From the UHGV virus genome UHGV-1735138: a DNA stretch of 14,855 bases; one strand, 5' to 3'. A model generated the notes under the pieces. It was given only the letters and a program-made list of their open reading frames with translations, was not told the origin of the DNA and searched no databases. Source of the stretch: a virus. Shown here in pieces: positions 7,393-8,156 of this stretch (position 1 is its first letter; each line of letters opens with the position of its first letter). The translations under genes were made by a program, and so were the position numbers.

Positions 7393-8156
7393 ACATCCTC
7401 CCGTTACTTGATAGACCCATAGCCTTCCAGAGAAGTTTTATCCGTCTTGAAATGGGCGTGACTGCCGCATTGTTTCTGTCGCAGTTGACGTACTGGACAA
7501 ACAGAACAACTGACGACGGCTGGGTATATAAAACCCAGGATGAGTGGGAAGAGGAAACAGGGCTTTCACGATACGAGCAGGAGGGCGCGCGCAAAAAACT
7601 ACGTGGTCTCGGCATCTTGCTGGAACGTAAACAGGGCTTGCCTGCCAGGCTGTACTACAAAATCGATAATGATGTGTTGTGCCAGCTACTTACGTCCGCA
7701 TACAAGGATGCGGAAAAACCACATACAGGTGAGGGGAAAACCACCAGGCCTGTACGAGGAAAACCAACAAACATTCTTACAGAGAATACTACAGAGATTA
7801 CTACAGAGATTATTACTGATGGTGGATCGGCTGACGCCGACACCCAACAACCTGCCGACCAGAGAATAAATTATCAGGTGATACTCGATACCTATCACGA
7901 GATTTTGCCAGAGATGCCACCAGTGAAAATCCTCACTGATAGCAGAAAAAAACACCTTCGCTCTTTCTGGAAAAAATTCAATTTCAATGAGTCCCGTTGG
8001 CGGGCCTATCTGGAATTTATCGGTGGTAATTGTCGCTGGATGCTGGAGGACAGGCCGAATGGCAAGGGAGGGTTCTGGCGACGCAAGAATCTTGATTACC
8101 TGATTACCGAACGCTGCTACGTTTCGGTCAAGGAAGAACGCGCAAATGATAAATAA
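7389..8156 (+). CDS. Replication initiation / replisome organizer protein, O-like or P22 gp18-like (255 aa)
   Basis: Position immediately upstream of the DnaB-like helicase; N-terminal winged-helix-like region (GVTAALFLSQLTYWTNRTTDDGWVYKTQDEWEEETGLSRYEQ); contains internal tandem repeats typical of an origin embedded in the initiator gene. Confidence 0.65.
   Translation: MNILPLLDRPIAFQRSFIRLEMGVTAALFLSQLTYWTNRTTDDGWVYKTQDEWEEETGLSRYEQEGARKKLRGLGILLERKQGLPARLYYKIDNDVLCQLLTSAYKDAEKPHTGEGKTTRPVRGKPTNILTENTTEITTEIITDGGSADADTQQPADQRINYQVILDTYHEILPEMPPVKILTDSRKKHLRSFWKKFNFNESRWRAYLEFIGGNCRWMLEDRPNGKGGFWRRKNLDYLITERCYVSVKEERANDK
7779..7814. repeat. Three tandem 12-bp repeats inside the O-like gene (iteron-like candidate origin)
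   Basis: ACAGAGAATACT / ACAGAGATTACT / ACAGAGATTATT in tandem, encoding TENTTEITTEII; an AT-richer stretch follows (about 7865-8000). Confidence 0.4.

Follow-up and report, generated by a model that had tools for sequence, protein, structure and literature searches.

Tandem 12-mers beside lineage-specific direct repeats in a prophage initiator gene: a candidate two-part replication origin

Introduction

The origins of phages lambda and P22 lie inside their initiator genes, and in RepA_N replicons the origin repeats are found inside the rep gene, between a conserved N-terminal domain and a host-specific C-terminal domain. The lambda origin is made up of iterons and an AT-rich tract, the latter being needed for unwinding, and the lambda O initiator binds single-stranded DNA (PMC7466680). 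Plasmid Rep proteins of the winged-helix type contact their iterons and, at the same time, a single strand of the unwinding element at its repeated 13-mers, and all of the repeats are needed (PMC4081077). Here we analyse a stretch of 14,855 nucleotides of viral DNA (UHGV virus genome UHGV-1735138; hereafter the window, in whose coordinates positions are given), in which a replication initiator gene contains three tandem 12-bp repeats of the consensus ACAGAGAnTACw. These 12-mers follow three larger direct repeats, and we propose that the two sets together probably form a two-part replication origin within the DNA encoding the linker of the initiator, with the 12-mer array as its unwinding and helicase-entry half.

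Results

The 12-mer array and the repeats upstream of it

A preliminary description of this DNA had reported three tandem 12-mers at 7779-7814 in the middle of a gene, and both their coordinates and their sequences proved exact (Table 1). The array occupies codons 131-142 of a 255-codon open reading frame (ORF), in frame, and encodes the peptide TENT-TEIT-TEII. Tandem Repeats Finder reports it with a period of 12, 3.2 copies, 92% matches and a score of 64, the sole other row in the window being a two-copy 8-mer of 16 bases with a score of 32. With up to one mismatch allowed, the core ACAGAGANTAC is found four times in the window, and three of these copies are in the array; shuffled sequence gave an expectation of 0.67, and four occurrences were reached in none of 200 shuffles. 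The lone remaining copy, ATAGAGAATAC with one mismatch at 11301-11311, is distant from the candidate origin and within chance expectation.

The array lies in the least stable DNA of its surroundings. GC content falls to 0.30 at 7760-7819, the minimum within 7000-8600, and is 25-33% in the array per se. In a nearest-neighbour stability profile the 36 bases from 7779 are the least stable such segment within +/-500 bases, and the same is true of the array in 35 of 63 loci. An AT-richer stretch had been described as following the repeats, which is not what we find: the array itself is the AT minimum, the next ~45 bases have ~53% GC, and a mildly AT-rich stretch (GC 0.37-0.42) begins only at ~7900. 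The array has the sequence characteristics of unwinding-element repeats, being short and tandem, lying in the least stable DNA and adjoining putative duplex binding sites. A promoter and terminator scan found none within the repeats, and an internal-promoter reading was dropped on that account. Rfam covariance models gave no match at E up to 1 on either strand of 7000-8600. Comparison by eye with the DnaA box, the DnaA-trio and the integration host factor consensus, which is our own reading, gave no convincing match to the 12-mer.

Directly upstream lie three larger direct repeats (7707-7774) that had gone unremarked in the preliminary description. Matches to their core GGAAAACCA begin at 7713, 7735 and 7758, and the 100 bases 5' of the 12-mers show 48% identity when shifted against themselves by 23 bases. 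The same arrangement recurs in 66 non-redundant loci with 12-mers, where the 5' 100 bases hold three or four larger direct repeats in every lineage and the best self-shift is 23 bp in 53 of the 66 and 22-24 bp in 62. A control stretch within the coding region of the N-terminal domain (N-domain) has no favoured self-shift. A period of 23 bp is not divisible by three, which puts each copy in a different reading frame from the one before, and the repeat is therefore one of DNA and not of peptide. The order and spacing of the two sets of repeats are conserved, with a spacer of about 4 bases (TCTT, TATT, AAAT, ATAT, TAGA) between them in nearly all 66 loci. The three 22-23-bp repeats in the window are probably the specificity iterons, and we refer to them as iterons below.

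Selection acts on the DNA of the array

In a protein alignment of relatives of the initiator, TE.TTE.TTE was the best conserved stretch, kept despite differing N-domains and C-terminal domains (C-domains). A repeat without DNA function, in which slippage had generated a low-complexity flexible linker rich in Thr and Glu, would be expected to lie in a predicted disordered linker, as this array does, and to vary in copy number, which is two or three in Escherichia coli and two to five overall. We gathered 80 loci by protein patterns that excluded the repeat. Of these, about 30 have tandem arrays of two to four units 3' of the N-domain. Their sources are Enterobacterales, Aeromonas, Acinetobacter, Pasteurellaceae, Comamonas, Contendobacter, Nitrospirota, Chloroflexota, Deltaproteobacteria and others, with a locus GC of 0.38-0.67. 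The loci free of 12-mers (most of L035-L038, L040-L046 and L048-L082) include Paraburkholderia proteins of ~500 amino acids and Thermomicrobiales proteins of 198 amino acids, and many of them are stand-alone winged-helix ORFs of 110-125 amino acids.

Codon counts from loci ascertained by the motif are circular and were therefore replaced by counts from ten non-redundant loci, found by protein homology and chosen by peptide pattern alone; this is the only codon test free of motif circularity. Inside the repeats Glu is encoded as GAG in 24 of 24 cases, against 99 of 227 in the remainder of the same genes (p=1e-8), and Thr as ACA or ACT in 50 of 53, against 97 of 185 elsewhere in these genes (p=2e-9). 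The third codon of the unit is invariably A-n-T and encodes N, I, T or S. Since the synonymous sites are fixed and the amino-acid variation is the product of one free base, selection acts on the DNA and not on the peptide.

Copies of the element are also found out of frame and outside genes. A metagenome-assembled genome (MAG) of Desulfofervidaceae (L039, 2895-2958) has five copies at 12/13-bp spacing, and its variant unit ACATAGAnTAC puts TAG in the usual reading frame; the same variant is present in a Spirochaetia MAG (L061, about 2866-2890). In a further locus (L022) the entire element lies 3' of the stop codon of the N-domain ORF. Plasmid pBamNAU-B3a of Bacillus velezensis (NC_022531.1; L209, about 2420-2590) carries a non-coding copy of the centre of an initiator gene, consisting of three iterons CCTACAGGGAAAGA and three ACAGAGATTACT units, plus about 45 bases more. 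The homology is to the middle of the initiator gene of phage PM1 (L211, ORF9), and the copy has one-base indels and no initiator ORF. This copy could be a decoy against phage, a means of amplification by phage, or a relic. The plasmid is a small one of rolling-circle type.

Such copies, and the fixed synonymous positions beside a third-codon amino acid that is free among N, I, T and S, effectively refute the reading of the array as a slippage product with no function as DNA. So does a pairwise DNA identity of 95% in the 12-mers, against 33% when the helix-turn-helix coding sequence of these genes is compared at third codon positions. We regard this reading as barely credible.

The probable iterons differ between lineages and the 12-mers do not

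The larger repeats are lineage-specific, with examples including GGAAAACCAC, TTGCACGAAACCGCCAAAC, GGCGGAAnGCGCC, CGGGAAAGCCC, GGTCAAAATGACC, GGGCAAATTGCCC and GACCCTCC. Across 36 loci the mean pairwise identity was 0.31 for the last two iterons compared in fixed register, 0.33 for third codon positions of the helix-turn-helix coding region, and 0.95 for the first two 12-mers at their ten specified positions each. The lineages that share this identity of 0.95 have recognition helices with 64% identity, and N-domain classes with other recognition helices (QFGF.KR, QFPFWS) have the 12-mers as well. In the consensus built from 184 units of the 66 non-redundant loci, 10 of 12 positions have 1.3-2.0 bits; this consensus is descriptive only, most of these loci having been collected via the motif. 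Copy number is two in 23 of these loci, three in 35, four in seven and five in one. When the iterons were compared without a fixed register, their similarity correlated with that of the recognition helices (Mantel r=0.39, reached in 0 of 2000 permutations, uncorrected for shared ancestry).

The preliminary description took the 12-mers themselves for iterons. They would then be bound as duplex, unit by unit, by the winged-helix domain and would nucleate the initiation complex, and their being tandem direct repeats within an initiator gene agrees with this. The 12-mers also accompany a single N-domain superfamily, whose signature helix A..L.Q..YW is present in 62 of 64 non-redundant 12-mer ORFs, even with a different class of recognition helix; as a lambda-type N-domain goes with a different invariant element (see below), some contact with the initiator is plausible. 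It is the pattern of variation that speaks for a different role: the 12-mers are near-invariant across initiators with differing recognition helices, while the adjoining 23-bp repeats track the recognition helix, and for this reason we do not consider the 12-mers to be iterons. By this comparison their sequence does not co-vary with the specificity of the initiator, as that of iterons in the strict sense would. Moreover, their 12-bp head-to-tail spacing is far tighter than the 20-24 bp of lambda iterons or the 23 bp of the repeats upstream, and they stand at the position of the A-rich element in lambda and P22, not at that of the iterons. Binding of the 12-mers as true iterons thus appears rather unlikely to us.

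Invariant elements and the N-domain superfamilies

The exact double unit ACAGAGANTACNACAGAGANTAC is present in at least 120 viral contigs; by our own estimate, a pattern of 20 specified bases would be expected less than once by chance. Among the viral matches listed, a detectably related N-domain is encoded by 92 of 120 ORFs and the C-domain of the window by 1 of 120. Bacillus phage BtCS33, Staphylococcus phage 37 and several Shiga toxin (Stx)-converting phages have the element in their initiator genes as well, and BLAST finds the double unit on plasmids of Bacillus, Clostridium, Lactobacillus relatives and Nostoc, of which only the Bacillus velezensis plasmid was inspected. A motif match in a giant-virus contig (L101) was discarded as an unrelated low-complexity repeat. 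We found no earlier description of the 12-mer in the searchable literature, which is itself incomplete.

A lambda-type element, ACAAAAGACAnTAT(T)ACAAAAGA, is likewise found in at least 120 viral contigs, behind very different iterons. Among the matches listed (L212-L331), it is accompanied by a lambda-type N-domain in 113 of 120 ORFs and by the YW helix in 0 of 120. Both types of element occur in phages of enteric bacteria, and the P22-type C-domain is found with both. Across these collections, the type of invariant element follows the N-domain superfamily and not the host or the C-domain, which suggests that a conserved part of the initiator contacts the element.

One explanation that dispenses with such contact is that the 12-mers form a site for a host replication factor common to all bacteria, acting for instance in primase start or helicase loading. 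The same element does extend from hosts in Proteobacteria to hosts in Bacillota and to MAGs of other phyla, whichever C-domain it is paired with and whichever helicase or loader gene comes next. Nevertheless, lambda and P22 use a different element, with a different N-domain, in the same hosts (E. coli and Salmonella), which is hard to reconcile with a common host factor; the by-eye comparison gave no DnaA-box match, and the trinucleotide preferences of primases differ between phyla. We consider a host-factor site improbable.

Relation to the lambda and P22 origins and to domain exchange

In lambda, four annotated iterons are followed by ACAAAAGACACTATTACAAAAGAAAAAAGAAAAGATTATT... (element at L206 520-560). 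The annotated rep_origin of P22 (32840-32984) consists of iterons, then ACAAAAGACAATAT ACAAAAGACAATAA (element at L208 527-560), then a CCCCC...GGGGG palindrome. E. coli 'RepO' genes (336 amino acids) are chimeras. One such gene (L210 1241-1451) does not differ from the window gene in the iterons and 12-mers, and switches inside the third 12-mer (~7810 in the window) to a palindrome and C-domain like those of P22 gene 18. This junction places the 12-mers where P22 has its A-rich tandem element. The likeness to lambda seen in the preliminary description is borne out in this sense, as the repeats lie in linker-coding DNA under selection as DNA and share the layout of the lambda and P22 origins inside initiator genes. 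The sequence features of lambdoid origins are found in the window region too, namely a position inside an ORF between domains, lineage-specific repeats and an adjoining tract of low stability.

Judged by its sequence, the array is also a junction for domain exchange, which raises the possibility that it is mainly a recombination linker at the boundary of N- and C-modules, enabling module swaps by homologous recombination. The end of the homology between the window and RepO inside the third 12-mer would agree with this, as would the 92 N-domains and single C-domain among the 120 viral ORFs listed and the two recombination points annotated in lambda O, which lie ~40-50 bases past the last iteron, around TCGTCAGAGAAT (L206 558-567; lambda 39157-39166). 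Occasional exchange is unlikely, however, to keep 10 of 12 bases near-fixed across phyla, and the non-coding plasmid copy retains the array and iterons without modules to exchange. With the element type following the N-domain superfamily as well, the more likely view is that exchange happens there as a by-product of the array's being conserved, and we give little credence to recombination as its main role. The lambda sequence TCGTCAGAGAAT resembles the 12-mer variant TCAGAGAnTACT.

The initiator gene and protein

Table 1. Features of the initiator locus in the window
Feature	Position	Strand	Description
Replication initiator gene	7389..8156	+	255 amino acids; winged-helix N-domain, disordered linker, helical C-domain
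N-terminal winged-helix DNA-binding domain coding region	7389..7712	+	amino acids 1-108
Probable iteron 1	7707..7728	+	GATGCGGAAAAACCACATACAG
Disordered-linker coding region	7713..7847	+	amino acids 109-153; AlphaFold2 predicted local distance difference test (pLDDT) <50
Probable iteron 2	7729..7751	+	GTGAGGGGAAAACCACCAGGCCT; also listed as repeat family D16
Probable iteron 3	7752..7774	+	GTACGAGGAAAACCAACAAACAT
Spacer	7775..7778	+	TCTT, 4 bases; between last iteron and first 12-mer
Tandem 12-mer array	7779-7814	+	three units, consensus ACAGAGAnTACw
12-mer unit 1	7779-7790	+	ACAGAGAATACT
12-mer unit 2	7791-7802	+	ACAGAGATTACT
12-mer unit 3	7803-7814	+	ACAGAGATTATT
C-terminal helical domain coding region	7848..8156	+	amino acids 154-255
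DnaB-like replicative helicase gene	8146..9390	+	overlaps initiator gene by 11 bases; Pfam DnaB (PF00772), DnaB_C (PF03796), phrog_19

In the AlphaFold2 model of the initiator, the N-domain (pLDDT 84-94) contains helices (residues 50-57 and 61-74) and a beta-hairpin (residues 77-92), and the iterons and 12-mers (7707-7814) fall almost wholly in the linker between two confidently folded domains. The N-domain holds the superfamily signature helix (...AALFLSQLTYW...) and a recognition helix in ETGLSRYEQEGARKKL. Its nearest folds are the RepA_N plasmid initiators (4pt7, 4pql, 5kbj), the DnaD N-domain (2v79) and MarR-like winged helices, all weak (E from ~0.02), and a sequence search against solved structures likewise gave weak winged-helix matches only.

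The gene had been described as O-like. Its identity as a replication initiator gene stands: it matches phrog_1347, phrog_345 and phrog_9773, the last two labelled 'replication initiation O-like', it is followed by a DnaB-like helicase gene, and its RefSeq relatives carry the annotation 'replication protein'. Membership of the lambda O family does not. The initiator matched no Pfam family at E up to 1, including PF04492 Phage_rep_O and the RepA_N profile, and no NCBIfam model at 0.01, including TIGR01610, whereas the controls were readily recovered (PF04492: lambda O 6e-36, P22 gp18 7e-38; NCBIfam: P22 gp18 2e-24). An hhalign comparison with the lambda O family gave a probability of 9.9%, confined to the helix-turn-helix region. 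By these profile searches the window initiator is outside the lambda O family. The C-domain is matched by phrog_24933 and by the C-terminal part of phrog_345, and C-domains of the window type are also found behind other N-domains, in Pectobacterium phage ZF40 and in loci L011 and L118.

A 17-base inverted repeat, 94% complementary, has its arms in the N-domain coding region (7465-7481) and early in the helicase gene (8226-8242). The arms bracket the candidate origin and the remainder of the initiator gene, and may be due to chance.

Prophage setting

Repressor, Cro-like and CII-like (YdaT) genes lie upstream of the initiator gene, with genes for an integrase and an exonuclease and a Gam-like gene farther left. 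Of 5426 complete E. coli genomes, about 450 carry this segment, a prophage, with an identity of 95-99%. A search for near-identical DNA among phage genomes gave no match, and relatives were found via protein and pattern. The copy number of the 12-mers is polymorphic: in 415 of 425 E. coli genomes with the gene segment, the match has the identity expected for a two-unit allele, and all 57 full-length two-unit matches among those listed are 289 bp long. The three-unit allele is rare, found in GF43 among E. coli genomes and in E. whittamii among other species. Many of the two-unit E. coli genomes look clonal. Two units are also seen in L002 (2669-2692).

The helicase gene ends in TAA at 9388-9390, where E. 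coli GF43 and SK1144 have GAA. It encodes 414 amino acids in the window, against 471 in relatives, with a leftover ORF at 9391..9561. The gene is probably inactivated in the window.

Discussion

The arrangement of the locus suggests a division of labour between the two sets of repeats. The N-terminal winged-helix domain would bind the 22-23-bp iterons via its recognition helix, and the iterons would thereby give the origin its specificity. The complex of initiator and iterons would open the DNA at the 12-mers, 4 bp past the last iteron, and a conserved surface of the N-domain would hold the opened array, probably by one strand. The C-domain, which is presumed to interact with the helicase, would bring in the DnaB-like helicase encoded directly downstream.

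More tentatively, and as a possibility that we do not hold to be the likelier outcome, ACAGAGAnTACw may be a previously unrecognised, near-universal opening box of a large superfamily of phage initiators of the winged-helix type that have the A..L.Q..YW helix and are represented in neither Pfam nor NCBIfam. A conserved N-domain surface would read the box, probably as single-stranded DNA, and the variable recognition helix would read the 23-bp iterons. The lambda O family, with ACAAAAGACAnTAT as its own box, would be a parallel to this.

Several points weigh against the proposal of a two-part origin with the 12-mers as its opening half. The 12-mers are missing from about 50 of the 80 loci whose N-domain is homologous, and the commonest E. 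coli allele has just two copies. A plain unwinding element needs AT-richness only, which leaves the 95% identity at ten positions unexplained, and a GC content of 25-33% is not extreme. Comparison of iterons and recognition helices in fixed register gave no correlation (r=-0.05), and neither this comparison nor the register-free one was corrected for shared ancestry. The large viral set was collected with the motif itself, so that its consensus and codon counts are circular. The steps beyond the existence of the elements rest on inference. Finally, the helicase gene of the window has a nonsense codon, and this prophage copy may therefore no longer replicate.

Taken alone, the window would hold an ordinary lambdoid-style origin in a prophage initiator gene, beside a probably inactivated helicase gene. 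If the wider proposal is correct, the place where the strands open can be read from a 12-base motif in the origins of phages and prophages whose hosts range from E. coli to Staphylococcus, Bacillus and uncultured phyla. Origins would then be locatable by sequence alone in many phyla, and the part that confers specificity would be separable from the part that opens. Synonymous recoding of the array would offer a clean test of DNA melting by winged-helix initiators. Such a two-code origin, with a variable address and an invariant opener, would explain why initiator genes recombine, and their N- and C-modules are shuffled, exactly here, and origin-only copies on plasmids could be interpreted as decoys, hitch-hikers or relics.

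Among plasmid systems, the best structural matches to the N-domain, although weak (E from ~0.02), are with RepA_N initiators (RepA of pSK41 and pTZ2162), together with the DnaD-like replisome organisers of phages. RK2 oriV (TrfA), F (RepE) and the 13-mers of E. coli oriC resemble the window in having short tandem repeats beside duplex binding sites, in the least stable DNA. Those repeats are intergenic and specific to their replicon, whereas the 12-mers are translated and are the same across very many replicons.

The window differs from lambda in its N-domain, which is not of the Phage_rep_O type, in an iteron sequence unrelated to that of lambda, and in an element, ACAGAGAnTACw, that is an exact 12-bp tandem where lambda has ACAAAAGACAnTAT and then an A-tract. 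The partner gene encodes a DnaB-like helicase, where that of lambda encodes a P-type loader. As in lambda, the candidate origin is placed mid-gene in the initiator ORF, flanked by the regions coding for a DNA-binding N-domain and for a C-domain that would recruit the helicase, with direct repeats about two helical turns apart, then a purine-rich tandem element of low stability on the same side, and with domain-exchange junctions at this post-iteron element. Salmonella phage P22 (gene 18 and gene 12) has an N-domain of the lambda O type and a 14-bp tandem unit (ACAAAAGACAATAT), and the window gene, unlike that of P22, has a different C-domain and is without the GC-rich palindrome. In both P22 and the window, the initiator gene is followed by a phage gene for a DnaB-like helicase, and the iterons are followed by a tandem A-rich element.

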